A stretch of 64,000 nt of DNA from Acidobacteriota bacterium (GCA_965205505.1 CBDBHB010000008.1:448001-512000), one strand, 5' to 3'; counted from the first letter of the stretch, positions 429 to 20,712 are shown. Numbers and translations are program-made. Notes: generated by a model not told the origin, from the sequence alone.

Positions 429-496
429 GTGTGTGATCATATAGAGAAGATTCACGCCGAACGAGAAGGTCACGATGCGCATCGGGGAGGGAAGCC

Positions 497-1854: not shown

Positions 1855-1977
1855 TAGGACTTGCCCTCTGACGTGATCGTGCCATCAGAGGCAAGCGGCG
1901 ACGGGGGTTCGAGTGGGTTTATCGACCTCTCCCACTCACGGTGGTGCCGAGAACGGGTGCGAGGGCACTGCGCTCTC

Positions 1978-2228: not shown

Positions 2229-2278
2229 TGACCTGACCCCACGGTTAGTACCACGTCTAATCTCAGTAACTCGGTGCT
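2229..2278 (-). mobile_element. Isolated 50-bp right end of the IS3 element found intact at 31235-32494
   Basis: 49/50 match to the reverse complement of 32445-32494 (tgacctgaccccacggttagtacc...). Confidence 0.9.
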
Positions 2279-2304
2279 TGACCCCACCCCGAAATCAGTA
2301 CCAG

Positions 2305-3135
2305 TCAGAGGTTTAGGATTCGGTGTTCCGAAGCCTCCGGTTGCCAGCCCCTGGCGAACTCCGTAGGAGTTCGATCGTTCAGTGAGCTGTGTGGTCTGTG
2401 GGTATTGTAATCAAGCCTCCAAGCCTCCAGTTTTCGGCGCGCGTCATCGATCGAGAAGAACAGGTTGGCGTTGAGGCATTCGTCGCGAAGCCGTCCGTTG
2501 AAACTCTCGATGAACGCATTCTCCACGGGCTTTCCCGGCCGAATGAACTCCAACTGCACGCCTCTTCGGTACGCCCAGGAGTCCATCGCCTGGGAGTAGA
2601 ATTCTGAGCCATTGTCGACGGTGATGACCCGTGGCAACGGCCCGGCAAACGACAGCCGCTCGAGTGCTCCAGCCACCGCCTTGCCGGTCATCGACACGCC
2701 CGGCTCAAGTAACGGACATTCACGGCTAAACTGATCGACCACCGTCAGCACCCGAAACGGCCGGCCACTCTCGAGCCGATCGGTCACGAAGTCCATGCTC
2801 CAGCGCTCGTTGGGCCGCTCTGCGGGCGGCAGCACAAGCCGTATGTGACTCGCCCGCTTGCGCCGTCGCTTTTTGGTCCGTACCTCCAGCCCCTCCTCTC
2901 GATAGATCCGATACACGCGCTTCTGGTTCACTACCCATCCCTCGCGGCGTAGCAACACGCACAACCTCCGATACCCGAACCGCGGACGCGCCGCGGCGAG
3001 CTCGCCAAGACGACGCCGCAGCACGGGGTCGTCCGTCCTTGTGCTCTGATACCGATGGCTGGTGCGCGACAACTCGATCAGCCGACACGCTCGACGCTCA
3101 CTGACACGGAACCCGTCCTGCAGGTACCGCACCAC
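2305..3135 (-). CDS. IS3 transposase OrfB (DDE/rve), expressed by -1 frameshift
   Basis: [39 protein letters not shown]. Confidence 0.93.
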
Positions 3136-3155
3136 CTCGCGCTTGCGCGCCGGCT

Positions 3156-3422
3156 TTACACCTTTTTTGACAGCACCTCCTGGAGCATGTGCTTGTCCAA
3201 GCTCAGATCTGCCACCAGCTGCTTCAACTTCCGGTTCTCATGGCGGAGTTGTCGTAGCTCCCGAAGTTCGGCCACGCCCATCCCGGCGAACTTGCGGCGC
3301 CACGTGTACAACGTCTGCTCGCTGACGCCCAGCTTGCGACACACCTCCTTGATCGGCGTGCCCGCCTCAGCCTGCCGCAGCGCGTAGGCGATCTGCTCGT
3401 CCGTGTACCTCTTCCGCTTCAT
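3156..3422 (-). CDS. IS3 transposase OrfA (HTH)
   Basis: [21 protein letters not shown]...[15 protein letters not shown]; A6G slippery site at its 3' end. Confidence 0.92.
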
Positions 3423-3496
3423 CTGTCCTCCTGCTTGGAGGACGACGGTACACCGATTTCCTAAACATCAACCTGGCACCGTTTTCGGGGTTTGGG

Positions 3497-6400
3497 TCAC
3501 AGGCATGTTGCATCCGGTGCGGGGACGCCATATTGGTCCAAGAGCACCGACCAGCCGCGCTCGCCTTCCGCGCCTGTCGATGCTGCCACCGGCACGACTT
3601 GTCCGCGCGCCACATCGATCAGCAATTGCTGTACCTGGTGGCTGGCACGGTCGATCAACTCGTGATCCGGCTGGTTGAAATAGGACAGTAGGCAACGGTA
3701 ACAACCCCGCACACAAGCCTCTTGTTCACGTTCCTCTAGAAGGTCGGGGTCGCCTGCATCAACGGCCTCTTCGACGTTGTCGAAATGCATCAGTTCGAGC
3801 GCTTGTTTCGCGACCCGGTTCAGTGCATCCGGATCCTCAATCAGACGGCTCAGCACGCCAGCGCCACCCTCAGCCGCCTCGTAGGCCAGGACAGCGCGCC
3901 GGTCATCCCTGCCGGGTAGCGGCTCGCCCAGGATTTCGCCTTCCTCCAGCTGGAACACCACCGTGATGCCCCGCATCAAGGCATGCTGGAGCGTGGCGAT
4001 TGTCTTTGGGTCAAAGCGATCGGGATCTTCGAACCGAAGCAGGAGGGCGTTCTTGCGATCCCGGACGATCGGGACGATCCGCACCGGCCGCACCGCATCC
4101 GGTGGGATCTCCACTTCCGGGTCTTCGTCCTCGCTCTTGGCCCAGTATCCGGTACGGGGATCGATCATGAATCCGAGTACCGTCTTGTCGCGGCGCCGCT
4201 TCAGCCCCTTGTTGATCCGACTGATCTGCGCGCTGTTGGCGTATTGCAGCCTGATCAGGGGCGCGTCCGCGACCTGGAACTCAGCCTCGATGACCTCGAC
4301 ACGGCCGTGCTTTCGCGGCCAGGCAAAAACCGTCTGAATCTCGAAGCCCTGACGAATGCGTTCCTCGTTATTGGCTGTTATCCGCTCGGCCGGCGCCGCC
4401 TCCACATTATTGATCCTGAGTGTGCGTTTGACCGGCAGCGCGTCAGCCATCGCCTCGTTGCAAGCGTGACAGCGTTCGACCTCGCCGTCGTGCGCTGCCC
4501 CGCAGTTCGGGCAGATGGTGATCTCCCGCGTCGCTAGTTCCTGACCGTCGTCGGTCCGGGTCTCGGGAGGTAGCTTCGCCTTGACGACCCGGAACGCACG
4601 CCCTTCGTGATAAATGAGGCTGCGAGGACCGAACTCGGAGATGGCGAGAAACCGGGCGCGCTGCAGGAAAGAACCGGACGTACCCTCACCGGGAACGAAG
4701 GCGTATAGGGGCAGCCGCGGGAAATTGTAGCCGGGTAGAAAACCTTCCGTCGCCAGGTAACGGTACGAGTAAAAGTCCGATCCGTTGGTTGCACGGCCTT
4801 GTTCAAGAAGGGCGATCTGATCCGTGGCCCGCATCTGCGCGGCCTTGATCTTGCGCCGATCGGCTCCCGACAGCCCCGGTACTTGTGACTGGCTGTTGGC
4901 CTCGATCAGTTGTGTGCGGGCGGAGTGATAGAGTTCACGCCATCGGTCGAAGGCCCTGTCGAATTCCTCCGGCGACTGGGTGGCAACCTCCCTCACATAC
5001 TCGTCCGGATCCGCCATCCAGCCAGGTTTGCGACCGTCCAGCGACGCAAGAATTTGCTCCAGGACACGGCGCAGTGGTCCGCATGCCTTGTCGACCAGAC
5101 CGGGAGCCTGGATAACCTCGAGGATCTCGTCTTTCAGGGGGTATCCGTTCTTCTGTAGGTCGAGGATCTCGGGAATGTCGGCAGACAGGGGTAACTGCGC
5201 CGAGGCAAGCCAGATCGCCTGCAGATGAGAAGCGACCAGGTTCTTGTTGGTGATCTCGAGTGCCGGCGGGCGTACCACACCGGCCACCATGTCGATGCGC
5301 CGATCGAAGAAATACTGATCATGCGGCGACTGGGCCGCACAGTACGTGAAGATGACCGCGGCCTGCCCTGACCGCCCCGCACGTCCAGCTCGTTGCGCGT
5401 AGTTCGCAGGCGTCGGCGGCACATTGCGAAGATAAATCGCATTCAGCGCCGAGATGTCGACCCCTAGCTCCATCGTGGGCGTGCAGAACAGGGCCGGCAA
5501 TAGGTGTGCCGACTCGCCGCCGGCCTTGATTTCCGTCTCGCACTCGGCAATCCGCGCTTGATCGTCGGCTTCGAAGCGGAAGCGCCATTCCCGCCATTCC
5601 CGCTGCCTCTGGGTCACCTGGGCCGTATGCTCGCGGCTCTCTATCCCGAACAACGAACTGGTCCTCACCCCGTCCAGATCGGCCGCAATCCGCGTATACA
5701 GGTCGTGAAAGTAACGGTTCCCTACAGCGGCTTGCTCTCGAGCGGCCGGTCCTGGAATGAGTCGGACAGCCGAGGGCGATAGACACCACCCTGGAAAATC
5801 GCCCTCACTCGAAGCCAGCGTCACAAGCCCTTCATCGGCCAGAATGGCAAGGAGTTCGGAGACAAAGACGAGGTAGTCGCCCCTCCCGAGCTTCGTGCCG
5901 ATGACGCTCTCGCGGTTAAGCAGGCGCGCTATGCGTGACTGCGGGCCCGCGCGAAGGACCAGCTGTTCTTCACGCAGACTCGTGACTCTCTTGCCGGGGG
6001 CCTTCAGAAACAGGGTTGTACGCCCTCGCGGTCTTTCCTTGCTGTCGATCGCCCACGGAACCTGCAGGAGCGACCGTGATCTCTGTGCAACGGTGTCCAG
6101 AACGGCAAGATCGAGTGCCTCGGTACCGACGGCCAAGCCTTCGAGCATGGCCCCTAGCAGGATCCGGAGGACCTTTCTGCGAGCATCATGATCCAGGGAT
6201 CCGAGCTCAGGCAGAATGGCTGGGAACCTGTTTCCGTCCGCGGCCACGTCGCCGAGTCCCACGAAATCCACTTCGATCAACTTCAACCTCGACAGGCTCG
6301 GATTCGTGAAACGCCAACCCCGACGCAAATCGGTCCAGACCCGGTGCGCGAGCACCTTGGCCAACGACCGCTCTGCATCGCTGCGAACCACCGCCCCGGC

Positions 6401-8497
6401 CTCGGGGTTCAGCATCCAGTGCATCCGCAGCGCTGCGTTCGAGCCGACAAAACCCAAGGCCCGTTGAACACGGAAGCCGAACTCCTCTTCCCGCAGGCCT
6501 TCCTCGCCAGCGTCGACAACGGCGCGCAGCATTGCTCCGCGCAGCAGGCTCACGAACACAAAATCGTTGAAATGCCCCGCTTGAAGTGCAGCGTCCTGGC
6601 GATTGTCCGTGAAGCCAAGGAGTTTGCGCTTCTCCTGTGCAACGGCATGGGCAGGCTCGTTCAGCCATTCAAGAGCGCTCGATACGAGAAGCGTCGTCGC
6701 TGAGCTCCGACCTTCAGCGGTCAGGCCCGCAAGCTTGCTGCGCTCGCGCATGGCCGCTTGTGGCTCATCGAGACAGCAGGTGCAGAAGGCGAATTTGCCC
6801 GGAATGAACCAGAATGGCTCACCGTCTTCGGCAGCACGGCCGCTGCCCGCGACCGTCACCATCTTCGGCACACGGCTCTTGCGGTACGACCGGAGCTTGG
6901 GCTGGCCGTTGCTTTCTTGTGTCCAGCCTTCCGGAAACTTCTCGAGCTCCCCATCGAAGCGGTAGTCCGGATCACCAACTCCGGATGGCGTTAGGTACCC
7001 GGCGACGTCGGTTTCGTCGTCGCTGCCGATCGGGGTGTCGTCGATATTGCGCGGCACGAACAACGGGCGATCCTCGTGCTGCCTTCTCGTCACCACGTAG
7101 TACTCCTGACCGCAACGGCGGCAGAAGCGAATCGGATACAGCCGGGTCCCCGGAGAGTCGGGATCCTCGAGTTGTCCCTCCAGCAGAACGGTTCGCGGCT
7201 TCAACCGCAATGTTGCGAAAATGTCGCCCGCTCCTGCGATGAAGCGGTGCAGCTTGAAGGCCAGGAACGATTGGTCGCCGGTACCGCCTCGGTCCTTGTC
7301 AGGAAGGCTGACGCGGGTCAGGAAGCTCTCCAACACGGCACCACAGCGCTCTGGGTCGATACCGCTCGCCTGCGCCAGCGATTCGGTGGCCTCGCCAAAG
7401 GGCATCGGCCGTCGGCGCTTCAGGATCTGCGCGTCTTCCAGACCGAGCTCGAGCTCCGCCCAGACCGCAAGCGGGTGGGTGAACAGCTCGTCATCGGTCA
7501 GCCGCTCGGGAACGTCCCCCTCGAGCACGCCCGCAAGCTTCGGGGCAACATCCGCGAGTGCGAGGCGATCGTCCGTGGCCCGGCGCAGGGACTCATCGAT
7601 CACCGCATCCGGGCCGATCGGGACTCCGAACAGACGTGAAGCCACTTCCGAGACCGCCAAGGCCCTGCTGCCATCGCTTCCTTCGCTGGCCATCGTCGCT
7701 GAGGTCCCGATACAGATCGGAGCCTTGTCGGGCGTGCAGCGGTCACGCATACGCCGAACCAGAATGGCGACATCAGCACCTTGGCGGCCACGATATGTAT
7801 GCAGTTCGTCCAGGACGATGAACTCAAGGCCGTTGGCGTTCGCGATGACTTGAGAATCGACGGGAGCCTGCCGGGTCAGCAACAGCTCGGCCATCATGAA
7901 GTTGGTCAGCAGAACATCCGGCGGATGATCCGCGATCCACTGCCTTTCCTCCTGACCCTCCTGCCCGGTGTATCGCCGTACCACCGGCTTGAGGTTGTCC
8001 GGAAGGCCTGACTGATCAACGAATTTCTCGATTTCCTTCACCTGGCTGTTAGCCAAGGCGTTCATCGGATACACGATGATCGCGCGTGTCCTCGGCGCAT
8101 GCCCGGCCTTCCGCGCCCGGATGATCGCGTCCACGATCGGCACAAAGAAGCAAAGGGACTTCCCCGATCCAGTCCCCGTCGTCACAACGTAACTGTGTCC
8201 GGCGCACGCTTTGGCGATCGCCTGTCCCTGATGCTTGTGAAGCGTGATCGGCCTCGACCCAAACCGGAAGATCTGGGCCGTCTCCGGGCAAATGTCGCCG
8301 GAATCGACGAGATCGTCGGTCGTTGGTCCCGCTTCGTAATGAGGGTTCAGGGAAAGGAGGACATCCGGCCAGAAACGGCCCTCCTCATACTCGCGTGCAA
8401 TCGCCTCACGCAGGTCGGCTGCCCGAATCGTGCTGAAAGACCGCGAGAATGAAGCGTAGCTATTGACGATGTGGTGATCGAATTCGAAGGCTTTCAT
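3497..8497 (-). CDS. Large SF2 DEAD/DEAH helicase with C-terminal DUF1998 (MrfA-type Zn) domain; extreme C-terminus cut by IS3
   Basis: TTGTGSGKS, YPMNALANSQ, LDELHTY, GTSAT, TMELGVDI, QRAGRAGR, several CxxC pairs and CVRGCYRCLLSYFNQ. The stop codon is supplied by the IS terminus. Confidence 0.9.
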   Translation of the reverse strand: MKAFEFDHHIVNSYASFSRSFSTIRAADLREAIAREYEEGRFWPDVLLSLNPHYEAGPTTDDLVDSGDICPETAQIFRFGSRPITLHKHQGQAIAKACAGHSYVVTTGTGSGKSLCFFVPIVDAIIRARKAGHAPRTRAIIVYPMNALANSQVKEIEKFVDQSGLPDNLKPVVRRYTGQEGQEERQWIADHPPDVLLTNFMMAELLLTRQAPVDSQVIANANGLEFIVLDELHTYRGRQGADVAILVRRMRDRCTPDKAPICIGTSATMASEGSDGSRALAVSEVASRLFGVPIGPDAVIDESLRRATDDRLALADVAPKLAGVLEGDVPERLTDDELFTHPLAVWAELELGLEDAQILKRRRPMPFGEATESLAQASGIDPERCGAVLESFLTRVSLPDKDRGGTGDQSFLAFKLHRFIAGAGDIFATLRLKPRTVLLEGQLEDPDSPGTRLYPIRFCRRCGQEYYVVTRRQHEDRPLFVPRNIDDTPIGSDDETDVAGYLTPSGVGDPDYRFDGELEKFPEGWTQESNGQPKLRSYRKSRVPKMVTVAGSGRAAEDGEPFWFIPGKFAFCTCCLDEPQAAMRERSKLAGLTAEGRSSATTLLVSSALEWLNEPAHAVAQEKRKLLGFTDNRQDAALQAGHFNDFVFVSLLRGAMLRAVVDAGEEGLREEEFGFRVQRALGFVGSNAALRMHWMLNPEAGAVVRSDAERSLAKVLAHRVWTDLRRGWRFTNPSLSRLKLIEVDFVGLGDVAADGNRFPAILPELGSLDHDARRKVLRILLGAMLEGLAVGTEALDLAVLDTVAQRSRSLLQVPWAIDSKERPRGRTTLFLKAPGKRVTSLREEQLVLRAGPQSRIARLLNRESVIGTKLGRGDYLVFVSELLAILADEGLVTLASSEGDFPGWCLSPSAVRLIPGPAAREQAAVGNRYFHDLYTRIAADLDGVRTSSLFGIESREHTAQVTQRQREWREWRFRFEADDQARIAECETEIKAGGESAHLLPALFCTPTMELGVDISALNAIYLRNVPPTPANYAQRAGRAGRSGQAAVIFTYCAAQSPHDQYFFDRRIDMVAGVVRPPALEITNKNLVASHLQAIWLASAQLPLSADIPEILDLQKNGYPLKDEILEVIQAPGLVDKACGPLRRVLEQILASLDGRKPGWMADPDEYVREVATQSPEEFDRAFDRWRELYHSARTQLIEANSQSQVPGLSGADRRKIKAAQMRATDQIALLEQGRATNGSDFYSYRYLATEGFLPGYNFPRLPLYAFVPGEGTSGSFLQRARFLAISEFGPRSLIYHEGRAFRVVKAKLPPETRTDDGQELATREITICPNCGAAHDGEVERCHACNEAMADALPVKRTLRINNVEAAPAERITANNEERIRQGFEIQTVFAWPRKHGRVEVIEAEFQVADAPLIRLQYANSAQISRINKGLKRRRDKTVLGFMIDPRTGYWAKSEDEDPEVEIPPDAVRPVRIVPIVRDRKNALLLRFEDPDRFDPKTIATLQHALMRGITVVFQLEEGEILGEPLPGRDDRRAVLAYEAAEGGAGVLSRLIEDPDALNRVAKQALELMHFDNVEEAVDAGDPDLLEEREQEACVRGCYRCLLSYFNQPDHELIDRASHQVQQLLIDVARGQVVPVAASTGAEGERGWSVLLDQYGVPAPDATCL

Positions 8498-8800
8498 GCA
8501 TCGTCCTGCAAATTGCGTCCTTCAATAGCGAGTAGGACGGTCATGAATCCTCAACGTTTTCGGCCGCCACACCTGACGCCGATACCAGTGTCAGACGCCG
8601 GCGCAGCACCCAACATTACCGGTTCCATCCCGCCGGCATGACCCACGGACATACGGAGCGCCTGACGCGATCGCAGCAGCCTCTTCAGGGGCGCAGCTAG
8701 AGCTTGTGCCGTTAGTGGACTCCGGTCGTTCGGTACCTTGTGGATTTCCCGGCCACTGGTTCGCCGAGACTGCCCGGTATCTCACGCGTCCCTTCGTCTT

Positions 8801-9061
8801 CTATCTCCTGGACCTGCCTGCATCTACGAGCTTCTCCAGCCCGTACACGATCGTCTGGTGGGCGAACTCCTGACCCTGTTTGCTGAGGCTACGCTGGATT
8901 TCGGCCACCGTCATCGACTCGCTGCTGCTGCTTAACAACTCCAGCGCAAGCTCGTAGCTCCGTCCCCGTTTCGGTTGCTGACGCGTCTTGCGTGTCTTCT
9001 TCTTGGCCGGCGACATCGCCTTGGCCGCCGTGCCCGGGTGCTGCAGCGTCGCCTGTTTCAT
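8801..9061 (-). CDS. Small basic winged-HTH-like protein, possibly the 3' remnant of a longer gene
   Basis: ELALELLSSSSESMTVAEIQRSL...HQTIVYGLEKLVDAG resembles a wHTH; K/R-rich N-terminus. Confidence 0.45.
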   Translation of the reverse strand: MKQATLQHPGTAAKAMSPAKKKTRKTRQQPKRGRSYELALELLSSSSESMTVAEIQRSLSKQGQEFAHQTIVYGLEKLVDAGRSRR

Positions 9062-9241
9062 GGATCCCACGGCGGCTTCCAGTGAACGCAGCTAACCTGG
9101 AATCAGGCCCCCCGAGAGCCACCACGATTCTCTTCCCCTTCCGGGGAACCTCGAACTATTTCTCGGATACTTCGGTTTTCATGGCCACGCTTCCGAGTTT
9201 GGCCAAGGAGGAGGTCAGTCAAGTCGTGGAGCTCGCGTGAC

Positions 9242-11462
9242 GTGTTGAGAAGGGTCTTCGAAGAGGGTAGGAAGTGGATGCGCCGCCTATTGTGCCGCCT
9301 GCTCTTCCGAGGGACCTCTCACAGTGAGGGCAATGAGGGCGGGACAGAGCCCGACGAGCCCCCAGTACCGTCGACGAAGCTCGACAGTCCATCGGCGACA
9401 TCGCATACAGCACCGCCGGAAAGCCCACACGGAAGGCGAGCTGCGCCTTCTCGTCCCCACGCGGCGATGGCGGATCCACTGACGGCAAGGGCGATACCGA
9501 CGGGCGTGATCCCGAAGACCGATGGCGGGATCTCGGCTCCCTCGAAGGGGCGGAAGAAAGTCGAGGAGCCAGAGCCTCGACCTCCCCGACGTATTCCAGG
9601 AAGACGAGACGGACCGACGCAGACTAGAACCGCAACTAAGAACGGGAGCGGAGGAAATCGTGTAGGACGTCCAACGTCCAAGCCCCGTCCGGAGCTGATC
9701 TGCCGCAGACCTTCGGGTTCAGTGCAATGGGAAGTACTGCTCTCCGCAGATGAAGAATCCCGAATTGCACTAGTGAAGCAGAACGGCGAGCCGCTCAGCC
9801 TGGGGGACGGGGGGGTGGTCTCTCACGTCGTTCGACGGTCGCCTGTCCATCGACTTCGAGCAAGGCCCATCGATCCACGTCTCGCTGTTCGACAAGAGCC
9901 CACTGATCTTCAAGCTGAACAAAGCTTGGACCGGGGATGGCCGAAACATCACCCACCTGACGAAGGGCCACTTCATCGTGATCGCGCCGGTGGAGTGGGT
10001 CCGTTCGGGCCATGTGCCCGTTGAACCGGATTGCTGCTCTGACTCGGCGTTCATGGCGCACTATTTCTTCCAGGGCGGCAGTGAGTCCACGGAAGAGCCC
10101 GGCGGCTTTTCGGGGCATGAGATCGACTCAAGCGCACCCGGATTCAAGTTGAGCGGAAAGCGCGTCTTCGACGATTCCGAGGAGGGTGACCTGTTCGTGG
10201 GAACTCCTCCGCAACTGAGTGATACGGACCGAGTGGTTTGGGCGCGGGTCGGAGAGGAAAGAGCACACGGCTGGAAGGGCCATAACTTCAAACCGTCCGA
10301 GCGCACCCTTGCCGAAGTCATGAATGCTCGGCAGGGTCGCTTCTTCGTTCGCGTTTACGATGAGCAAGGGGCAATGCTGGATGGTGCCCAGTTCCGATAC
10401 CTGCGCGGTCTCCGAGAGATTCGGGTGAACGGAGAGCCTTACGCCGAAGACACGCTGCTCGTGCCGAGCGCGACAGGCCATCCGCCGACAAGGGTGCGGT
10501 TCATCGGCGCCGATGGCTTACCTTTGCACGCCGCCTTGCCGCCAGGCGCAATGCCTATGGAGGACGGGACGGGTACTCTGATCGCCGAGCCGCACCCCGA
10601 CGCGGACGAGATTTCGTGTGCGCTGGAAGCCGATGGCGGCCGCGTGGAAATCGCTTTGCATTTGCCGCGCATCTGGTGGCGGATGGAGCGAGAAGGCGCC
10701 GAATGGGATGGCGAGTGGTGCAGCACACCGTTCAAGATGACGCGCCATGATTTCCGTGACCACGCCGACTCGAACGCGATACTGCGGTTGCGATCACCGA
10801 AGCGAATCAGGTCGGTTGTCGTGGGCTTCGGTGACGAGCCGTGCCTCAAGTACACGAGGAGGGACGATGAGTTCGTATTGCCTCTAGCCCACTTCGTCGA
10901 TCATGTCCAGGTCGACCATCGCCTGACCGAGGATGCCCTGTTCAACGTCCGATTTGATCAGGCCAACGACCGACGCGATCAGAGGCTGCTGACCTTGATC
11001 CGGATTCCCGCCGACCCGCCACCGGCAATTGTGTCGCTCACCTGTGAACCCGGGGCCCTCGCCGCCGGAGAGAAGTCGCTACTGTCTTGGGTGACCCGCA
11101 ATACTGACGATGTCCACGTCGTGATCGATCCCGACATCGGTGCGGTTGCGCCTACCGGAAGCCGTGAGATCGCACCCTTGGAGACAACGACCTACACGCT
11201 GCGGCTCACCGCGCCCGGGATGGAAGGCGTCACAAGGCGCGTCACCGTGCGAGTGTCACGCATGCAGCCAAGAAAGGTCCTCGCCAAGGTTCTGCGAGGG
11301 GGCGGCGGCTGGCGACGCGGCAGGGGCTTTAGCTGCGGAGAGTTGCGCACAGTCGACTTGACCGCGACTGAGGCGGCGCGGAGGTCGATCAGCATCGACA
11401 GACGTCGACGCAGCGTGCATCCGGCCAACATCAAGACCCTTCGGAAAGTGGCCCATGGCTGA
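9242..11462 (+). CDS. Helicase-partner protein (about 730 aa) split by a +1 frameshift in a G7 tract; C-terminal Ig/PKD-like domain plus eL13-like motif
   Basis: ORFs 9242-10024 and 9978-11462 join if one G is removed from 9809-9815 (...SLGDGG|WSLTSFDGRLSIDF...). The stop overlaps the helicase ATG (ATGGCTGA, 11455-11462). Confidence 0.7.
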
Positions 11463-14400
11463 CGTGCACGACATGGGCTCGTGGCCCGAAAGAATTCGCC
11501 AACGCTACGAGAGCTATCTGAAGACCTCGTTCTTCTTCAAGGATCCCGGCCTTCGCGCCTCGTTCCAGACCGCTCTGCAAGAGGAAGAAAGTCTGCTGAA
11601 GGGCAACTATCCGGAACCGGCTCGGCGCTTCCGCACGGGATTGAACGCGCGGGCGCTGGCGCGGGGGTGCTTTCCCGAGACCGCCACCGACCTGCTTCCA
11701 GCGCTGATCGACGCTCCGCTGTATGTGCACCAGGAACGAGCCGTCCGAGCCGTCCATCAGAAGCAGCGCAACATCGTGGTCGCCAGCAGCACCGCGAGCG
11801 GCAAGACCGAGAGTTTCCTGTACCCGATCCTGTTCGAGCTGTATCGCCAGCATCTAGCTGGCCAACTGCGCCAGCCTGGAGTCCGGGCCATGATCCTGTA
11901 CCCGATGAACGCGCTCGCCAACGACCAACGCGACCGTCTGGGCAACATCGGCCGGGATCTACACGAGGCGGGGTCGGGCTTCCGGCCCACTTTCGGGCAG
12001 TACATCGGCCAGACACCCCAGAACAGCCGAGACCGGTGGCGCAATACCGATTGGTGGGCCGAGAACCGCCTTCCGGGCGAAATGATCTTCCGCGACGAGA
12101 TGCGCGAGGCTCCGCCCCACATTCTGCTCACCAACTACTCGATGTTGGAGTACCTGCTCATCCGCCCTGACGACAGCCCACTGTTTGACAATGGCCGGGG
12201 CGAGCGCTGGCAGTTCATCGTGCTCGACGAAGCGCACCAGTACCGGGGTGCCAAGGGCATGGAGATGGGCATGCTGATCCGGCGTCTTAAGCAGCGGCTA
12301 CGCGACGGGGGTCGGCGGGATCCATTTCGCTGCATCGCCACGAGCGCGACTCTCTCCTCAGGCAAGAGCGAAGCCGACAGACACGCGGTCGTCGAGTTCG
12401 CCAACGAGCTCTTCGGGGAGTCCTTTTCGGCGCCCAGCATCGTCTTCAGCGAGTCGCAAGAAGCGGCGGCCGACGGGCCTCCGCGCCGATACCACGCCTT
12501 TCTGCGCGCTCTCGAGGGGGCGTTTCTAGTGCACAGAGACGGCACGGACGCTGTGGTGCTGAACCGTAAGGGCCAAGCCGGGGATGGCACCGCCGCAGAG
12601 CCGTTGGAAATCGCCTTGTGCAAGGAGTGCGGCCAGCACTATTACGTCGGTCGAAATCAGGGTGGCATGCTCCAGGAGGCCATTCGCGATCCCAGCCACT
12701 CGGACTTCGGCGTGGACTACTACCTGCCAACTGAGGATGGGGACCAACTTCTGTGTCGGCGTTGCGGTGCGCTGTCGGGCTCGACGCCGGCATGCGAATG
12801 CGGAGCGACGGTTCGCGTTAGACGGTGTGAGAACCACAAGGACCACGCCGATCAAATGAAGCGGTGCGAGGCGTGCCAGTATCGGCGCGGCGGCATCGGC
12901 GACCCGGTGCAGGAGATCGTGCACGGCTCCGACGGACCGAACGCTGTTATCGCAACCGCCCTGCACCAACTGCTCCCGGAGGGCCGGCGCAAGGTGCTGG
13001 CATTCGCTGACAGCCGCCAGGAGGCGGCGTTCTTCGCCTGGTATGCGGAGAATTCGTACGAGAAACTGCGCGACCGAAACCTCATATTGCGGGCGATCAA
13101 GGCGGGGCCGGTCGACTGTGGGGGGCTGTCCATCAGCGATCTCCAGAGCCGTTTGCTCGTCCAGTGGGAACGCGCCGGCCTGTTCAAGGCATCCGACACC
13201 GGCGAGAGCAGGAACCGGAAGGTGCTGACCGCCATTCTGCGGGAGGCGGTGACGGACGAAAGGAGGTTGTCCTTGAGCGGCGTCGGCCTCGTGAAGTGGT
13301 TCGTTGCCAGACCGGATTCGTTGCGTTTGCCGCAATCCATGCGACACTCGCCCTGGAGTTTCCAGGAGGAAGAGGCGCGCCGCCTGATCGGCTACCTGCT
13401 GGACGAGTTGCGCCCGCGCCGAGCCATGAATCTGCCGCCACGACCGTCGCTTGCATGGTCCGACGTATCGCTTTGGCCACAGCAGGCGTACTGCAAGGGA
13501 CCGCCGGGTAGGCGGCGGAGCGTTCTGCAATGGGGCGGTCCTCAGTCCGCAGTCGTCAGCCATTTCCTGCACCGGTTGCTCGCGGACTCCGGCTTGTCAG
13601 CGGAACAGAAGCGGTTGGAATCAACCGGGCTCATGGACGAGGTGTGGGAAGCGTTGCGGCATGATCGGGACCATCCAGTTCTCTCCCGCGGAACAGCGAA
13701 CGGAACGTTTCGGATCAATCCGGCTTGGCTGCGCATCAAGCCCGCCGGTCCCGGAGCAGTCTGGGAATGCGGCACATGCGCAACCTTGAGTAACTGCAAC
13801 ATCCGCGGTGTCTGTCCCCGCAATGGTTGCCCCGGCGACCTGACGCCCGCCAACCAAGAGCGTCTCCAGGAGAATCACTATCGGATTCTCTACGACGCCT
13901 TGGACCTTCCCCCGGCGCTGAGCGCGGAAGAGCATACCGCCCAGATTGACAGCGACGAGGCGCGCCGACGGCAGGACCGGTTCAAGAAGGGCAAGATCCA
14001 CCTGCTCAGCTCGTCGACGACGTTCGAGGTCGGCGTCGATCTCGGCGATCTCGATGCGGGGTTTCTGCGCAACGTGCCGCCGGAACCCTTCAACTACACG
14101 CAACGCGTGGGGCGGGCGGGGCGAGCGGCCACGCCAGGCCTGGCTCTGACGTACTGCCGCCGAAATCCCCATGACCTGTATCACTACGAAGATCCGGAAC
14201 ATCGGCTAATCCGTGGCGCGGTGCACCCGCCGCGCCTGCGGTTGACGAACCAGAAGATCGTCTTGCGGCACATGGTGGCCACTGCCCTGTCCGCCTTCTT
14301 CAGATCCGGCAGCAACGCCATGCGATTCAACCGTGTACAGGACTTGGTTGGGGACTGGCATAGCCCACGCGCAACGCTGGACCTGAGGGCGTTCTGCGAG

Positions 14401-14730
14401 AACAACAGCACATTGGCAGCGTCACTGCGCGAGATCGTTCCCGATCTCCTGCACAAGAGCACCGGACTCGCAGCGGACGCATGGACCGAGCAGGTTGCGG
14501 GGTCCGACAGTCGGCTTGCTGCCGTGGAGATTGAAGTGTGCTCGGACTATGTCGACATGGAGCGTAACCGGCAGGATCTGTTCGACCGACGCAAGGGCAC
14601 GGACAGAGTGGAAGACCGCATGAAGACCATTGCCCGCGAGCAGACGCTTAATTTCTTGTCCCGCAAGGCGGTCATCCCGAAGTACGGGTTCCCCGTGGAT
14701 GTCGTCGAACTCGATACTCGTCCCCGGGAC
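11455..14730 (+). pseudogene. DruE-like SF2 DEAH helicase with multiple Zn fingers, 3'-truncated (no DUF1998 tail)
   Basis: STASGKTESF, YPMNALANDQ, LDEAHQY, ATSAT, TFEVGVDLG, QRVGRAGR, IPKYGFPVDVVEL. After about 14730 the ORF reads through the antisense of the DnaB fragment to 14994. Confidence 0.85.
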
Positions 14731-15168
14731 GTCGTAAACCAGCCGATTGGCGTCGCCGAAGAAGTCGTTGGCCGTGAGCACCTGGGCGGCCGCGTTCAGC
14801 GCCTCGTTGTCGAGCAACACCGCGCCCAGGATCGAGCGCTCCACCTCGACGTTGTGCGGCAGCGCGCGCTCCTCGTGCCGTGTCCGGACTTGACGCAGCC
14901 GCCCCACTACGCGACCTCGCCTCGGTCGCCGACACGGGCGACGGTACCGTTTGAGTCCGTTGGGCTGTCGAATGTCCAGACCCCGGCCCCCTAGGGCCTC
15001 CAGAACCGCCTCCTGCGTGCATCCGGCGTGACAGTGCACCAGCACCTGCCCGTCGCGCTCTGTCGCGCTCAGGCTCGGGTTGCGGTCCTCGTGCGCCGGG
15101 CAGGGGTCCATGCCAGGTCCATTGGATCGACCCTCGAGCGGGCGGACGATCTGCTCCAGGCTGGCCAC
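14730..15168 (-). pseudogene. 5' fragment of a phage/satellite primase-helicase (Zn finger + DnaB N-terminal domain)
   Basis: CPAHEDRNPSLS...VHCHAGC (primase Zn finger), then LPHNVEVERSILGAVLLDN...DFFGDANRLVY (DnaB-N). Similarity ends at the helicase junction. Confidence 0.8.
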
Positions 15169-15169
15169 G

Positions 15170-15394
15170 TCACGTTGACTGCTGGGGAGGGGCAGGTTGA
15201 TCGCCCCCCGGCAGGGCGGTCGGACGGCTCGCTAACCACGCCTCGATGTCCGCCATCCGCCAGGCTACGGCACGGCGGCCGATGCGCACCGGACGGGGAA
15301 ACTCCCCCGCATCCATCGCAGCGTAGATCGCTGACCTGGAAAGTAGCGTGATCCGCTCGACTTCAGGACGCTTGATGAGGACTTGCTGCTCCAT
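15170..15394 (-). CDS. alpA: AlpA-family regulator/excisionase
   Basis: LIKRPEVERITLLSRSAIYAAMDAGEFPRPVRIGRRAVAWRMADIEAWL. Confidence 0.92.
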   Translation of the reverse strand: MEQQVLIKRPEVERITLLSRSAIYAAMDAGEFPRPVRIGRRAVAWRMADIEAWLASRPTALPGGDQPAPPQQST

Positions 15395-15508
15395 GAGGAA
15401 CCTCCTTGGTTTTGGTGGTTCCTCCCACTGTGCAGGGGTACCTCTGGCCTGTCATGAGGTGCGAGTTTCCGAAAACTCGCCCCCACGGCCCGGGGGTGGC
15501 GCAGCCGA

Positions 15509-16168
15509 CTACCGTTTACCCTGCCATATGTCGCGCATGGTGTCGTACGTGCTCACACTGTGATTTCTCTCCTTGAGCACCCCGAGCACGATGTCGCAGG
15601 CGGACGGACGCTCCATCGCGTCGGTAGCCTCATTGCGCTCCGCATGCATGCCACACTCTGTCAGGACGTGGATCGCCCATCGGAGCACGTTATTTCGCTC
15701 GGCCATCTTGGGGGCCGGCCCCTGGCTGCCTTTGCCGCCTTTCGGAGGCGCACGCCGGCCATGCATCACGTCGCCCACCCAACGGTGCAGGGCTTGCCCG
15801 AGTGGACGTTTGCCTTCGGTGCGCGCGAACGTCCACGCCAGTGCGTCCCAATGTACGGGGTTAGTACGTGATCCTTCGGTAGTGGATTCGATATCCTCGC
15901 GCGGGGTGTTGTCTTCGCCCCGAAGAAACAACGCAGCGTACATCCATACGTTGTAGTTGTGGGCGATCTCTGGGTTTCTCCACGACGGGTCCAGGTCGAG
16001 CCACAAGCCCACGAGAGCGCGCGCATCGTCGTTGGAAATGCGCTCTTTCTGCTCAATGAATCGTGTCCGGTGCTTATGGTGCAGCTTGGCGAACTCATCG
16101 TTCCGGGATTTGTCCAGGACGGCACGCACAGGCAACACTGGTTGCCTCGCGCGCTCTTTTTCACCCAT
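15509..16168 (-). CDS. Hypothetical protein between integrase and alpA
   Basis: Protein-like ORF from MGEKERARQ, in a position typical of satellite/IME backbones. Confidence 0.6.
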   Translation of the reverse strand: MGEKERARQPVLPVRAVLDKSRNDEFAKLHHKHRTRFIEQKERISNDDARALVGLWLDLDPSWRNPEIAHNYNVWMYAALFLRGEDNTPREDIESTTEGSRTNPVHWDALAWTFARTEGKRPLGQALHRWVGDVMHGRRAPPKGGKGSQGPAPKMAERNNVLRWAIHVLTECGMHAERNEATDAMERPSACDIVLGVLKERNHSVSTYDTMRDIWQGKR

Positions 16169-16472
16169 GAGGCAGCACCGGCACGATGGTCTGGATCGGG
16201 GCGGGCAACCTGGAGTGCGGCCCGGGCCCACTGATCGATGGGGACAGCAGCATCAGGCCCAGGATGACGGCCGGAATCAGCGTCAGTGCACGGCCCGAAA
16301 GGTTGATCCTGGGCGAGCGGAGATCGCCCATCCGCACGTTGCCGAGCTCACCTCTGTCCATATCATCTCTCCGTAGGCACGGGGGCGGTGGGGTAGACAC
16401 GTCTTCAGGGTAGCGTGCGTGGCCGTGTGCCAACCCACTTCAGCAGGCAGGGAACCGACCCGGTACTGCTCC

Positions 16473-17510
16473 CTAGACAGGGCGCAGCATCGGCACCACC
16501 TTGCCGCCCTCAGCACTCAGGTAAGCGGCCCAGTCTTCCATCAGCTTCCGGCGCCGCTCCAGCAGGTCCGAGCGCGCATAGGCCGCCTCGGTCGGGTCGC
16601 GCACCGCATGCGCCAGCGCCGCCTCCATGACCGCCCGCGGTGCGTTGGTGCACTCCGCCGCCCAGTCCCGGAACGATGAGCGAAACCCGTGCGGTACCGC
16701 TTCAATACCCAGCTGCCGCAGCACCCGGGAAAGCGTTGCGTCCGCCAGCGGCCTGCCGGCCCGTGCGCCGGGAAACACCAGCCCCTCGCCATCCCTGAGC
16801 CCCCGCGCCTGGCGCAGGATCTCCATTGCCCGGCCCGATAGCGGTACCCGGCGCCGCTTGCGGTGCCGTGGCAGCGCCTGGGTGATCGCCTCACCAGCCG
16901 GGTTGTCGCCACGGTACCCCTGCGCCATGGCCCACTTCATCACCGCACCGATGCGCGCCCGCACCCGCCGTGCGGTCTCGGCCTTGTCATGCCAGATCGG
17001 ACCCAGTACCTCCAACACCTCGGCCGTCGTCACCTCCGACACCGGCATCTCACCGATGCGCCCGTACGCATAGGTGCGCAACTCCGTTTTCCATTGCGCC
17101 GCATACTTGGCGTTGCGCCACCCGGGGCGGTGCATCTCATACACCTTGGCCGCTGCTTGCGCGAACGTCGGCATGCCCTCGGCCCGGCGCTTGTCTGTCA
17201 GCGGGTCACCGCCGGCACGGGCCAGCTTGCGGTTGGCAAATGCCACCTCGCGCGCCTCCGACAGCGACACCAAGGGGTAGCCTCCGAGACCCAGTTCCCG
17301 GCGACGGCCCTGGATCACGATCCGCTGTACCCAGCTGCGCGCTCCGCTCGGGATCACGTTCAGGTACAGGCCGTGTCCATCGCAGTACCGGCCCGGCTTC
17401 ATTACCGTGCGTACGAACGCCGCCGACAGGGCCCGCTCCGGGTGCTTGCCGCTCTTGCGCCGAGGGCTGGGTTTCGGTGCAGTTGCCTGCGCATCGGACA
17501 TATTATGCAT
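16473..17510 (-). pseudogene. P4-type tyrosine integrase with an in-frame internal deletion
   Basis: Arm-binding domain (PGRYCDGHGLYL...LGLGGYPLVSLSEAR), core-binding domain, HGFRSSFRDW, LAH and AAY are present. The box-I Arg segment (TxxRxxE) and the MK segment are missing between QALPRH and RVPLS. Confidence 0.85.
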
Positions 17511-17614
17511 CCCCCTCTCATTCCGCCATTAAAGGCGGGAATGTAGCGGATTGTCCGGGAACACGCAAGATGGACGAATACTCGTAACTGTCTGACTCTA
17601 CTGATGCTTAGGGA

Positions 17615-18067
17615 CTAATAGGTCAACTCAGGAATGCACCGGATCTGAACGATGGCAGAGATGCCGAGGGCCAGCGACACGATCGCCGTGAGCGAGAACC
17701 CGGGGCTCTGGCGCAGTCGCCGGAGCGCGTATCGCAGATCGCGCGCCAGCACGTAGACAATCGCTTCGCCGGTACGGCCCGAGCGTTCGTCCATGGCGCG
17801 CGACCGGCGGGCGGAGCGCTTGGCGCGGCGGATCAGGTCGGCGGCAATATCGTCGCTGCCGAAGTCCTCCAGCAGATCGTCGACGCTGCGCCCGGACGCC
17901 AGCCCGTCGTCGAAGTGGGCGATCAGCTCGCGCGCCACGTCGACACGCTCGACAGGACGGAGGCCCGGTGACGAAACGGCATTGCGCACGCGTTCGCGCA
18001 GCAGCTCTGGCAACCCGGATGACTCCAGTAGGCGCGCTACATCGCCCAGTTTTTGTTGCATGATCAT
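17615..18067 (-). pseudogene. 5' remnant of an ADOP-type ABC permease, truncated at the element boundary
   Basis: DVARELIAHFDDG...RDLRYALRRLRQSPGFSLTAIVSLALGI, then an abrupt loss of similarity at about 17660. Confidence 0.85.
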
Positions 18068-18090
18068 CGCTCCCCTTCGATGCTGCGCCG

Positions 18091-18435
18091 TCAGCGCTTG
18101 CCTGCCGTATCGACGAGACCGAGCCCTTCCATGGCCTGCACGAGCTGCTGCCACTGCGCCCGATGTGCCTCGAGGTGTTTCCGCCCGGCAGCCGTCAGCC
18201 GGTAGTACTTGCGACGGCGTCCCGACGTGGCGGTCTTCCAGCGGCCCACGATGAGTTTCTTGGCCTCGAGGTTGTAGAGCAGCGGATACAGCGTCGACTG
18301 GCCCATGGCTAGCACTCCATCGGTGCGCGCCTCGAGTGCCTCGACGAGCTCGTATCCGTAGCGTTCCCGCTGCTCGAGCAACGACAGCACCGCCACCGGA
18401 CCGGCGCCACGCATGAGCTCACGTCCTATTCGCAT
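18091..18435 (-). CDS. PadR-family transcriptional regulator
   Basis: VLSLLEQRERYGYELVEALE...STLYPLLYNLEAKKLI...RRRKYYRLTAAG. Confidence 0.92.
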   Translation of the reverse strand: MRIGRELMRGAGPVAVLSLLEQRERYGYELVEALEARTDGVLAMGQSTLYPLLYNLEAKKLIVGRWKTATSGRRRKYYRLTAAGRKHLEAHRAQWQQLVQAMEGLGLVDTAGKR

Positions 18436-18560
18436 GTCTTTCTCCGACTCGGAAGACGGGCCCACGCCGCCCCTGACTCTGACAGACATACTGTGTTACG
18501 CGAGGTATACGTGAAAAGTTTCAGCGTGCGGCGCGCCAAGCTCGCGCCCAATCGAAACCG

Positions 18561-19559
18561 CTAGCGACCGATCGCAAGCACGATCTTTCCGAAGTGGCGG
18601 CTCTGCTCCATGGTCTCGTGCGCCTCGCCGACCTTCTCCAGCGGAAACACCTCGTGGATCAACGGTTCGATGGTGCGATCGGCCAATCGCGGCACCACGG
18701 CTTGGGTGAGCTCGGCGACGATCCGGGCCTTCTCCTGCACCGGGCGCGAACGTAGCACCGACCCGATGATGCGCTGACGCTTGACCATCATGCGCACCAG
18801 GTTGAGCTCGGCTTTGATACCGCCCATCACGCCGATGATGATGAGGCTGCCACCCAGGGCCAAGGCTTTCATGTTGGCCGCCAGGTATTTCGCGCCGATG
18901 TGATCGAGGATCAGGTCGGCGCCCTTACCGTCGGTGTATTCACTCACCTCGGTGGCAAAGTCGTGCTCCGTATAATCGATGACCCGATGCGCTCCGAGCG
19001 CTTCGACGCGCTCGAGCTTCCCCGGCGAGGCGGTCACGATGATCTTGGCGTTCGGTGTGAGCATGCGGCAAAGCTGAATCGCGGCCGTGTTGACGCCGCC
19101 ACCACCACCGTGCAGCAGCGCGGTGCGACCGACTTCGAAGCCGCCGATCAGGAAGATATTGAGAAACGCGGTGATGTACGTCTCGCAGACACAGGCTGCC
19201 TCCTCGAAGCTCATGGTCTCGGGGATGGCGATCAGGTGATCGGCATACGCGGTGGCGTGCTCGGCGTAACCGCCGCCGCCAACCAGGCACATCACCCGGT
19301 CGCCGAGCTTCCAGCCGTCGACCTCGGCACCGACCTCCGGACCGAGCTCCGCGATCGTCCCCGCCACCTCGAGCCCGAGGATCTCCGACTCGCCCGGCGG
19401 CGGCGGATAGTTGCCCTGGCGCTGGGTGATATCGGCGCGGTTGACCGAGCTTGCCATCACCCTGATCAGCACCTGCCCGGGACCGGGAACGGGCCGCTCG
19501 ACCTCACCGACGCGAAGCACATCGGCACCACCGAATCCGTCGAGGAGCACGGCCTTCAT
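18561..19559 (-). CDS. NAD(P)H-quinone oxidoreductase (PIG3/MDR family)
   Basis: VNRADITQRQGNYPPPPGESEILGLEVAG; HGGGGGV; HFGKIVL. Confidence 0.9.
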   Translation of the reverse strand: MKAVLLDGFGGADVLRVGEVERPVPGPGQVLIRVMASSVNRADITQRQGNYPPPPGESEILGLEVAGTIAELGPEVGAEVDGWKLGDRVMCLVGGGGYAEHATAYADHLIAIPETMSFEEAACVCETYITAFLNIFLIGGFEVGRTALLHGGGGGVNTAAIQLCRMLTPNAKIIVTASPGKLERVEALGAHRVIDYTEHDFATEVSEYTDGKGADLILDHIGAKYLAANMKALALGGSLIIIGVMGGIKAELNLVRMMVKRQRIIGSVLRSRPVQEKARIVAELTQAVVPRLADRTIEPLIHEVFPLEKVGEAHETMEQSRHFGKIVLAIGR

Positions 19560-19647
19560 GGCGCCTGGTCTGCGCCCGGTGCGTTGACGACCCTCTGCGG
19601 CGTCATTCGACGGGTCACTGTGCGCACTCTGCGGGTCGGTGTTCGTG

Positions 19648-20712
19648 TCACTGTGCCGTGCGGTTGGCTTCCAGACGCTGGTCGACGAGCTCGACGATCT
19701 CGTCGACCGTGTCCGACTGCAGACTTTGCTGCTGCGCGATCTGACGAACCAGGCAGTCCACCCGTTCGATGTTCTTGGCGCCGGCGAACAGCGCCCGCGC
19801 CGCCGAAGACGGCTTGCGCAGCCCCTCCGCCGCCTTGGCGTATTTCTCGAACGGAACCATGTCGGCATCGGCCGCGCCCAGCCTGACGCACAGCTGTCGG
19901 GTCCAATCGTAGGTCTGGCGCGACAGCTCGAGGTCGGCGTGCACCGCCTCGCGAATCGGGATCATGTCGTCGCTCCGGATACACCGGTAGTTGCCGGCCA
20001 TCAACATCGACCATTTCGCCAGCGGCACGAATAGGGAATCGTGCACCCTGAGCTTCACCGGCAGCTCGATGGCACCATCGCCTGGGTCGTGGCGGGTGGC
20101 AATGATGTCGGCCTCGATGTTGCGCAACATCGCGGTGTGCTCGTGGGCCTCGAATCGAGTGCTCTTGAAATTGGTCGGCAGACCCACCTGGAGAACGTTC
20201 TTCGGTTCCTCCGGTGGGCGAAACGCCTGCGGGTCGGGGCTGGCGAGCGTCACCAGCCCGGGGTCGAAACCCTCCCAGACACTGGCGTCGGTGTAGCACT
20301 GGATGAGCGGAGCAGTCTCGAGCCCGGGAATCCGCTCCAGGTACGGCAGCGGCGGCATGTTCATGATCGCCAGGCTCGGCACCTTGGCCGCGGCGACGCG
20401 CCCCATCAGCTCGCGAACGCCCGGTGCTCCGTACTGCGCCTCCTGCATGGCAAGCACGACCAGGTCGAACAACCCGGGGTCGGCTTCGTCCGGTGTACAT
20501 GCCCAAAGCTCACCGCCGCATCCCTGCGAGGTGATCTCCACCGGGGTCTCTCGACCCCGGATCGGCAGCCGGACCGTGGTTCCACTGTCGTTGATGAGCT
20601 CGGCGGTCGGCTTGGTACACACCAGTGTCACCGAGTGCCCGGCGAGCAACGCCTTGGTGCCCAGCAACGAGCCGTAGGAAGCGCCCAGAATCAATACGTT
20701 GTATTTCGCCAC
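19648..20712 (-). CDS. Ketopantoate-reductase-like conserved protein
   Basis: N-terminal Rossmann-like VLILGASYGSLLG; directly downstream of frc and co-oriented. Confidence 0.7.
   Translation of the reverse strand: MAKYNVLILGASYGSLLGTKALLAGHSVTLVCTKPTAELINDSGTTVRLPIRGRETPVEITSQGCGGELWACTPDEADPGLFDLVVLAMQEAQYGAPGVRELMGRVAAAKVPSLAIMNMPPLPYLERIPGLETAPLIQCYTDASVWEGFDPGLVTLASPDPQAFRPPEEPKNVLQVGLPTNFKSTRFEAHEHTAMLRNIEADIIATRHDPGDGAIELPVKLRVHDSLFVPLAKWSMLMAGNYRCIRSDDMIPIREAVHADLELSRQTYDWTRQLCVRLGAADADMVPFEKYAKAAEGLRKPSSAARALFAGAKNIERVDCLVRQIAQQQSLQSDTVDEIVELVDQRLEANRTAQ

Follow-up and report, generated by a model that had tools for sequence, protein, structure and literature searches.

A DruE-like helicase paired with a partner protein ending in an eL13-like domain: a candidate Druantia-like defence cassette

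Druantia type III and the two-gene cassette

How the widespread anti-phage system Druantia works is only beginning to emerge, and least is understood about its partner proteins. The closest described systems to the locus treated here are the DruH-DruE operons of Druantia type III (III-A and III-B). The available text of recent studies presents canonical DruH as the likely sensor (10.64898/2026.05.12.724681) and as a protein with Ig-like domains that binds single-stranded DNA between its fifth Ig-like subdomain and its C-terminal domain (10.64898/2026.05.12.722862). Our locus lies at positions 9242 to 14730 of a 64,000-nucleotide (nt) stretch from an Acidobacteriota bacterium (GCA_965205505.1, CBDBHB010000008.1:448001-512000), which we call the window. 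It consists of a gene for a DruE-like helicase and, directly before it, a gene for a partner protein that ends in a fragment of the ribosomal protein eL13. We lean towards regarding it as a decayed copy of a mobile two-gene cassette that is related to Druantia type III and has not been described before; its partner would sense or dock by means of a module that binds RNA or the expression machinery.

Like Druantia type III, the cassette is a two-gene operon with the partner first and a Zn-rich, YprA/DruE-like MZB helicase second; the genes overlap at stop and start, and the partner contains Ig-like domains. With III-B it shares a compact helicase without a PLD domain, as far as the available text describes that subtype (10.64898/2026.05.13.724758). 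Unlike DruH, the partner has no detectable sequence relation to the DruH family, measures about 550-850 amino acids (aa) versus 1119-1132 aa, and ends in an eL13-like or another module derived from the ribosome or RNA polymerase. The C-terminal PLD nuclease domains of III-A DruE are missing from two intact homologs of the helicase.

A preliminary description, drawn from the sequence of the window alone, had claimed a two-gene unit with an 8-nt stop/start overlap, a partner of about 730 aa once one frameshift is repaired, a disordered N-terminus and a beta-rich core in that partner, an Ig/PKD-like domain at about 11016-11258, an eL13-like ending and a decayed copy of a DruE-like helicase. It had also named the points to look into: an eL13 match by profile and structure, linkage of homologs to the helicase, and a fit to an already described Druantia subtype. 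On none of these three points was its idea refuted. The anatomy it claimed is what we find:

9278 to 9817, plus strand: 5' part of the partner gene in frame 2 (tblastn with the intact homolog P0006)
9804 to 11462, plus strand: 3' part of the partner gene in frame 3 (tblastn with P0006, family core profile, all-beta AlphaFold2 model)
9811 to 9817, plus strand: G7 run, one G too long, in which the frameshift lies (sequence; frame +2 to +3)
11016 to 11258, plus strand: last Ig-like beta-sandwich domain, optional in the family (strands 569-647 of the AlphaFold2 model of P0006)
11310 to 11459, plus strand: eL13-like C-terminal tail, WRRGRGFSCGEL...IDRRRRSVHPANIKTLRKV (Pfam, NCBIfam, PDB profile, AlphaFold2 with Foldseek)
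11455 to 11462, plus strand: 8-nt overlap of helicase start and partner stop, ATGNNTGA (coordinates of the reading frames)
11455 to 14731, plus strand: truncated DruE/YprA-like superfamily 2 helicase, residues 1-1092 of about 1400, without the OB-CON-MZB end

Three open reading frames (ORFs) on the plus strand span the module (9242-10024, 9978-11462 and 11455-14994). The first two are one gene because P0006 (711 aa) aligns across both by tblastn, residues 1-165 with 9278-9814 in frame 2 at 59% identity and residues 162-711 in frame 3 at 83%. The gene starts at ATG 9278 or GTG 9242. Its frame-2 part extends to about 9812; its frame-3 part sets in at about 9804 and ends with the stop at 11460-11462, just behind the helicase ATG at 11455. 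With the switch in the G run repaired, the partner has about 728 aa.

In the AlphaFold2 model of P0006, whose mean predicted local distance difference test score (pLDDT) is 77.2, residues 9-120 are disordered (below 50), the remainder scores mostly 80-94, and the chain is all-beta. The best Foldseek matches of this model in the PDB are multi-Ig proteins, for example titin, CD109 and contactin, and no DruH chain is among its matches. The body of the partner is predicted to be a chain of Ig-like beta-sandwiches. Its last member is a seven-strand beta-sandwich in the model; 33 of 49 partner ORFs have it and 16 lack it, and the corresponding positions of the family profile (432-518) also match giant Ig-repeat proteins. 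Outside the tail, the partner matches no PADLOC, Pfam or NCBIfam family. In the window partner, a short N-terminal helix leads into a lengthy disordered Pro/Ser/acidic region; the basic stretch PRRIPGRR comes next, and with RPELICRR... the first beta domain begins. Most full-length partners open with a short conserved amphipathic helix (M-x-x-K/R-I/L...W...R-L; in the window within 9278-9640), continue with a highly variable disordered acidic/Pro-rich region of 100-300 aa (columns 1-320 of the family alignment A1), and carry a basic P-R-x-I-x-G-R-R stretch before the first beta domain.

As to membership of Druantia type III, a DruE-family helicase is present and no DruH homolog was found directly upstream of it. 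The PADLOC DruH3 models gave no match to the window partner at E<=0.01 and none to four intact homologs at E<=10; in a positive control, ten of these models matched E. coli DruH with up to 2544 bits. An hhalign comparison of the family (A1) with DruH, taken from the Zorya II / Druantia III-A / ARMADA II island of an E. coli plasmid (L061), returned a probability of 0.2%. On these two results we rejected the identification of the partner as a canonical DruH. Its resemblance to DruH is one of architecture and role, not of demonstrable homology, and no described Druantia subtype matches the pair.

The best PADLOC matches of the window helicase are DruE3 (1.1e-115) and DruE1 (6e-111), and its only Pfam domains are DEAD and Helicase_C; MZB is missing. 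Two intact homologs (L001 and L003; 1400 and 1404 aa) have DEAD, Helicase_C and MZB (PF09369, 5.2e-13 and 6e-12), after which the protein ends within about 20 residues; Pfam detects no PLD domain in either, and one of the intact homologs also has a weak SNF2-rel_dom match below cut-off. An intact cassette helicase is about equally distant from the DruE1 (1.2e-147) and DruE3 (1.9e-141) models. Scores of intact helicases against the DruE models are 472-492 bits versus 2180 for a true DruE3, which is about four times higher.

The helicase also resembles those of YprA/MrfA-like defence systems (DISARM, Dpd, ARMADA, BRIGADE, TALON), with which it shares the DEAD/DEAH core, Helicase_C and a C-terminal MZB/DUF1998, the last found in intact homologs and absent from the window fragment. 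Unlike in those systems, the companions named in the available text of a YprA survey, namely a BrxHII-like helicase, a PglX-like methylase, 7-deazaguanine genes, a NERD nuclease, TPR-CSD and TBP, are not conserved here (10.1101/2025.09.15.676423).

Partner and helicase belong together. A pattern scan of one genome per species across 185,579 species yielded 50 loci, all from metagenome-assembled genomes (MAGs) of many phyla, and in 47 of them the partner gene is followed immediately, on the same strand, by a helicase of the window's type. Of the three exceptions, L024 and L037 are cut short by the contig end and L012 has other genes in that place. Of the 47 helicases, 42 are single ORFs with 1387 aa or more and three (L004, L014 and L044) are split; L005 retains a remnant, and in L006 the contig ends within the gene. 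In L014 the helicase is interrupted at 13701-14879 by a 392-aa ORF on the opposite strand, and in L044 at 12940-14132 by ORFs of 120 and 301 aa. Of 46 homologous pairs, 31 could have the 8-nt ATGNNTGA overlap, and at most five of the 50 loci have any third gene cluster in common.

The two-gene module is apparently undescribed. The terms 'L13' and 'ribosomal' are absent from the main text of three Druantia III papers and the YprA survey; 'ribosom' and 'RNA polymerase' are absent from a further Druantia paper, and literature searches returned no L13e or ribosomal-protein module beside a DruE/YprA helicase. That the cassette was seen here only in uncultured lineages may explain why it was not described earlier.

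An eL13 core fragment and the modules that replace it

The ribosomal protein eL13 belongs to archaea and eukaryotes and is absent from bacterial ribosomes. The tail of the window partner matches the archaeal L13e model NF008914 of NCBIfam at E=6.7e-13 (48.1 bits, cut-off 96; model positions 28-74 of 83) and Pfam PF01294 (Ribosomal_L13e) at E=9.4e-5 (22.8 bits, cut-off 24.9; positions 62-97 of 180), so that neither curated cut-off is reached and neither model is covered in full. The homolog P0150 matches PF01294 at E=3.7e-6, and 29 of 120 listed homologs carry a precomputed match to it. When a profile of 32 family members was run against all PDB sequences, 76 matches appeared at E<=10, and all of the best 60 are eL13 chains, headed by 9e6q_AH at E=1.5e-9. 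The AlphaFold2 model of the window's own last 69 aa, built with 24 homologous tails, consists of two short strands and three helices (pLDDT 84.8), and each of the 50 Foldseek matches listed comes from a ribosome entry of an archaeon or a eukaryote. The top match is again 9e6q_AH, the 50S eL13 of Pyrobaculum calidifontis (TMq 0.73, root-mean-square deviation 2.6 A, 41% identity). An alignment of 25 tails shows no variation at G, F, S, E, D, RR and H. Because profile matches, fold match and invariant residues agree, the tail of about 50 residues is a real, conserved core fragment of an archaeal-type eL13 and not a chance motif.

What the tail shares with eL13 is the core motif (W/R-x-G-K/R-G-F-S-x-x-E-L ... 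I-D-x-R-R-R/K ... N) and the strand-helix-helix-helix fold, the 41% identity to Pyrobaculum eL13 extending over 66 columns. It differs in comprising only about 47-50 of the 83 positions of the archaeal model or the 180 of Pfam, and in being the C-terminal tail of a bacterial multidomain protein of about 730 aa, not a free ribosomal protein. Here a piece of an archaeal-type ribosomal protein persists in bacteria in a role outside the ribosome.

The tail is the commonest of several terminal modules. Its hidden Markov model is matched by 41 of the 49 partner ORFs of the loci, and among 318 non-identical family members, which are the best-scoring hits and not a random sample, 270 (about 85%) carry it. 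The tails of about 30 of the 318 match no family. Other members carry the following modules and additions:

uS17: L034 (Pfam, E=2.7e-27, model positions 1-68 of 68)
NusB before a retained eL13 tail: P0015 (Pfam, 1.4e-20) and P0125, near full length
bS6: P0275 (Pfam, 6.6e-25), P0129 (5.7e-7) and a diverged group linked to bS6 by BLAST; positions 1-90 of 90
uS5, N- and C-domains: P0190 and P0269 (Pfam)
NusA C-terminal repeat: P0248 (NCBIfam, 1.7e-7, below cut-off)
RNA polymerase omega (Rpb6): L021 (Pfam, 6.5e-8)
sigma-70 regions 2, 3 and 4 as an N-terminal fusion: L047, L049, L050 and P0156 (Pfam)
PIN at the N-terminus, with eL13 tail: P0150 group (Pfam)
XRE-type helix-turn-helix (HTH_XRE) at the N-terminus: P0148
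tail interrupted by an insert of about 65 aa: P0011, P0025, L001 and L002

In a midpoint-rooted FastTree of the core with 305 tips, Fitch parsimony counts 35 changes of module label, up to 12 of which involve the labels 'fragment' or 'unclassified'. Judged from these sequences, one position on the partner scaffold exchanges its terminal modules.

The uS17 module of L034 is 45% identical to the same genome's own S17, and the sigma module 54% identical to the best host sigma; both are old or imported paralogs, and the helicase is intact behind each. L048 is grouped with the sigma-70 fusions, as it has the same truncated core match. In the sigma-70 clade (P0156 and the ORFs of L047-L050, 1349-1452 aa) a region 1.2-like stretch follows regions 2, 3 and 4, the last Ig domain is missing and a degenerate eL13 tail is kept. 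Two genomes have two cassettes of different type (L005 and L049 on OZ243982.1; L004 and L050 on JAAXHG01 records), and in both of them one cassette has a plain eL13 tail and the other the sigma-70 fusion.

The omega module of L021 is of a different kind. Here 311 nt copied from the host rpoZ (11682-11992; 97.7% nt identity), including some 10 nt of flanking sequence at either end, sit in frame in the eL13 tail and keep their own stop codon. The second half of the tail, now out of frame use, and the ATGCCTGA overlap remain downstream, and the 5' end of the helicase has a frame break in a T run. We downgraded omega as an adaptive module, since it is a recent ORF-sized copy of rpoZ that brings its own stop and has a broken helicase behind it. 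The insertion marks the tail as a landing site for foreign coding pieces.

The unexplained variant tails gave nothing usable in the databases searched. Pfam found no domain in those of P0040, P0145, P0153, P0180, P0197, P0206, P0211, P0215, P0236 and P0264, nor in those of L031, L032, L040, L041 and L042. NCBIfam found none in eight of ten; phmmer against PDB sequences found nothing for four of five and chance-level Fab matches for the fifth. An ESM Atlas search of two variant tails gave no usable match.

The reuse of expression-machinery domains in predicted immune systems has precedents. According to the available text of the respective papers, CoCoNuTs contain an SmpB-like domain (PMC11090510) and TOTE/TALON a TATA-binding protein (10.1101/2025.09.15.676423). 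Unlike in those systems, one position in one family has here taken up many such domains in turn, and core expression-machinery proteins appear to have been recruited repeatedly into a probable immune system. The family is a natural experiment, with one helicase, one scaffold and interchangeable modules of known binding specificity. Swapping or deleting the modules could show what a Druantia-like sensor reads.

Spread and possible function

The cassette is mobile and has spread horizontally between phyla. Helicases are 60-85% identical across MAGs labelled Gemmatimonadota, Rhodothermales, Acidobacteriota, Chloroflexota, Proteobacteria, Spirochaetia and others, and the flanks of the cassette vary between loci. 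The family is larger than the locus set. A word-based search found 249 relatives at E<=0.001, none of them named, and a core-only profile (A2) run against 1.84 billion representatives of 50%-identity clusters found 1378 at E<=1e-30, some of which are Ig-repeat look-alikes. Among the best 150 of these matches, three are giant Ig-repeat proteins that match the last domain only. Four of ten sampled neighbours are defence-like or typical of mobile genetic elements: a type I HsdR, an HTH gene with ImmA/IrrE, AAA_14/DUF4143 and a weak SIR2.

A more distant arrangement occurs on the Ralstonia solanacearum megaplasmid CP023017.1 (L060, 4541-11856), where the gene of a 470-aa protein without a PADLOC match overlaps by 4 nt the gene behind it, which encodes a 1968-aa helicase with 28% identity to the cassette helicase. 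This pair may be a further partner type.

The cassette is probably a defence against phages or other mobile genetic elements. This rests on the family of its helicase, the patchy spread and the variable context. The first gene would supply the sensor or adaptor, the role that DruH has in Druantia III. The second, translationally coupled to the first, would supply a motor or effector of about 1400 aa that acts on invader nucleic acid with its RecA core, Zn modules and MZB and without a PLD nuclease. The terminal module would bind nucleic acid, most likely RNA or single-stranded nucleic acid, and would either sense the trigger or hold the complex at the transcription-translation machinery. A terminal module that binds nucleic acid or the expression machinery would account for its repeated replacement or supplementing by small rRNA-/RNA-binding proteins and RNA-polymerase-associated factors. 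A role in RNA sensing or in docking gains indirect support because relatives replace the tail by bS6, uS5, uS17 and NusB, which bind ribosomal RNA (rRNA) or other RNA.

Several observations weigh against this interpretation. Protein contacts are the main mode of action of sigma-70, the NusA repeat and omega, for which RNA binding fits less well than docking on the expression machinery or a role as bait. The omega insertion of L021 is probably an accident. The way in which the 318 members were chosen also counts here, as do the roughly 30 tails without a family. The other six of the ten sampled neighbours were counted as housekeeping: GltB (glutamate synthase), SDR, an ABC ATPase, GNAT, YdjM and one without a match. 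Carriage on known mobile elements is unsupported, because none of 26 pattern matches in a scan of IMG/VR was confirmed as a relative and the 796 records matched among 72,556 plasmids are all below 60% identity, none belonging to the cassette's own clade. Finally, a stable complex of partner and helicase is not to be assumed, since E. coli DruH and DruE were not stably bound in vitro according to the available text of 10.64898/2026.05.13.724758.

One could also argue that the modules are integrated bait. They would copy host expression components to which phage take-over proteins bind or which these modify, and the helicase would be switched on in response. We consider this unlikely. It is true that the swapped-in modules are whole and of host type (uS17 1-68 of 68, bS6 1-90 of 90, both uS5 domains, NusB near full length, sigma-70 regions 2-4), that several of them act through protein contacts and not through nucleic acid, and that sigma-70 and the NusA repeat fit better here than under RNA binding. 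Phages do target sigma-70, Nus factors and ribosomal proteins. But the dominant module, eL13 (270 of 318), has no counterpart in bacterial ribosomes and cannot mimic a host protein. The uS17 and sigma modules, at 45% and 54% identity, are not close host copies, and the sole near-identical copy, the omega of L021, looks like a disruptive insertion. A cassette that moves between phyla is also a poor fit with host-specific mimicry.

In plants, NLR immune receptors with integrated decoys consist of a conserved immune scaffold that carries variable, host-protein-derived domains at its end. That the cassette is the prokaryotic counterpart of these receptors, with the eL13 tail as an ancestral nucleic-acid-binding default, would be a further form of the same idea, and we give it an equally low chance. 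Unlike the plant decoys, the commonest module here is without a host counterpart.

Another explanation is that the partner, by way of its module, stands in for a subunit of ribosomes, rRNA precursors or RNA polymerase, so that the helicase is stationed on the expression machinery and acts when this engages foreign DNA or RNA. In favour of it, every module identified belongs to the ribosome or RNA polymerase, either as a subunit or as an accessory factor, and canonical DruE co-purified with host proteins that are released on infection, as the available text of 10.64898/2026.05.13.724758 reports. Such surrogate subunits nevertheless seem improbable to us. Bacterial ribosomes have no site for eL13, a beta-rich body of 600 aa fused to uS17 or uS5 may not fit the 30S subunit, and the PIN and HTH_XRE additions do not fit.

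It is very unlikely that the cassette has no immune function and is a repair module, or one for quality control of RNA or ribosomes, built on a YprA/MrfA-type helicase. The YprA family does include a DNA-repair branch in the available text of the survey (10.1101/2025.09.15.676423), ribosomal-protein modules could point to ribosome or rRNA metabolism, and housekeeping genes make up six of the ten sampled neighbours. Yet DruE models far outscore all other PADLOC models, and the repair-type models of NCBIfam match the helicase only weakly. The distribution is patchy, with 50 loci among 185,579 species genomes, the flanks are variable, and decay is frequent (three split helicases, one remnant and the window copy).

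That the cassette is an ordinary Druantia type III with a diverged DruH is extremely unlikely: gene order, stop/start overlap, Ig-like domains in both partners and a DruE-like helicase are shared, but the DruH3 models miss the partner and four homologs, hhalign stays at 0.2%, and the helicase lacks PLD and scores 472-492 bits where a true DruE3 scores 2180.

Decay of the window copy and its surroundings

The window copy is decayed in the assembly as it stands. Its helicase stops at residue 1092 or thereabouts of some 1400, and its partner carries the frameshift in the G run. The remaining features concern this break and the neighbouring elements:

14081 to 14731, plus strand: 651 bp of the helicase gene that recur with 100% identity at the start of a second helicase fragment, on another contig of this assembly
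14732 to 17679, no strand assigned: multi-copy mobile element adjoining the helicase break, with a 2948-bp copy of 99.9% identity on contig C9
3497 to 8497, minus strand: second, intact DruE-like helicase, context only (Pfam, PADLOC)
2228 to 3500, minus strand: insertion sequence with an rve-type transposase, context only (Pfam)

With the 1400-aa helicase of L001 as tblastn query, residues 1-1092 align at 85% identity and the alignment ends at 14730/14731; past this point the third ORF is antisense to a DnaB-N-like fragment. Residues 877-1400 lie on contig C9 (1273932-1275506; minus strand of locus L059, 7933-9506) and share 86% identity with the L001 helicase; this fragment overlaps the window at 14081-14731 in 651 identical bases. 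The break may be a mis-join across the 651-bp repeat; one truncated copy exists either way. The frameshift in the partner may likewise be a homopolymer error of the assembly. Contigs of runs X1 and X2 match the window in the G run, and these come from one sample that is possibly the source of the window and are not independent of it; a relative in run X5, from another study, has one base fewer at 9809.

The preliminary description had further placed the unit on an integrative element, and this stands in part. In its favour are the insertion sequence, the multi-copy element with an integrase-like ORF and a lower G+C content (0.61-0.64 versus about 0.65-0.67); a transfer RNA and an intact integrase were not found. 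The multi-copy element of about 2.9 kb (14732-17679) has, besides its 99.9% copy on C9, several partial copies in the assembly. It encodes the DnaB-N-like fragment and the integrase-like ORF, in which Pfam detects arm-binding and central domains only and no catalytic domain. Two of its sub-parts, 16140-16851 and 16852-17660, recur separately. An Rfam scan of window positions 1-20000 gave zero matches, and a promoter scan of 8400-9400 found no promoter and two overlapping terminator-like sites, which is within chance.

The second helicase (P0004; 1666 aa) has DEAD, Helicase_C and MZB, matches DruE1 best in PADLOC (9.7e-76) and is about 37% identical to the cassette helicase. It is divergent from the partner gene, and no DruH-like gene was found upstream of it. 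We rejected it as a third component of the cassette, since its only counterpart in the 50 loci is a weak cross-match to the cassette's own helicase. Its stop codon adjoins the insertion sequence at 2228-3500, of which 16 further copies of at least 1221 bp and at least 93.9% identity lie on contigs C4, C5, C8 and C9 of this IS-rich (insertion sequence-rich) genome.

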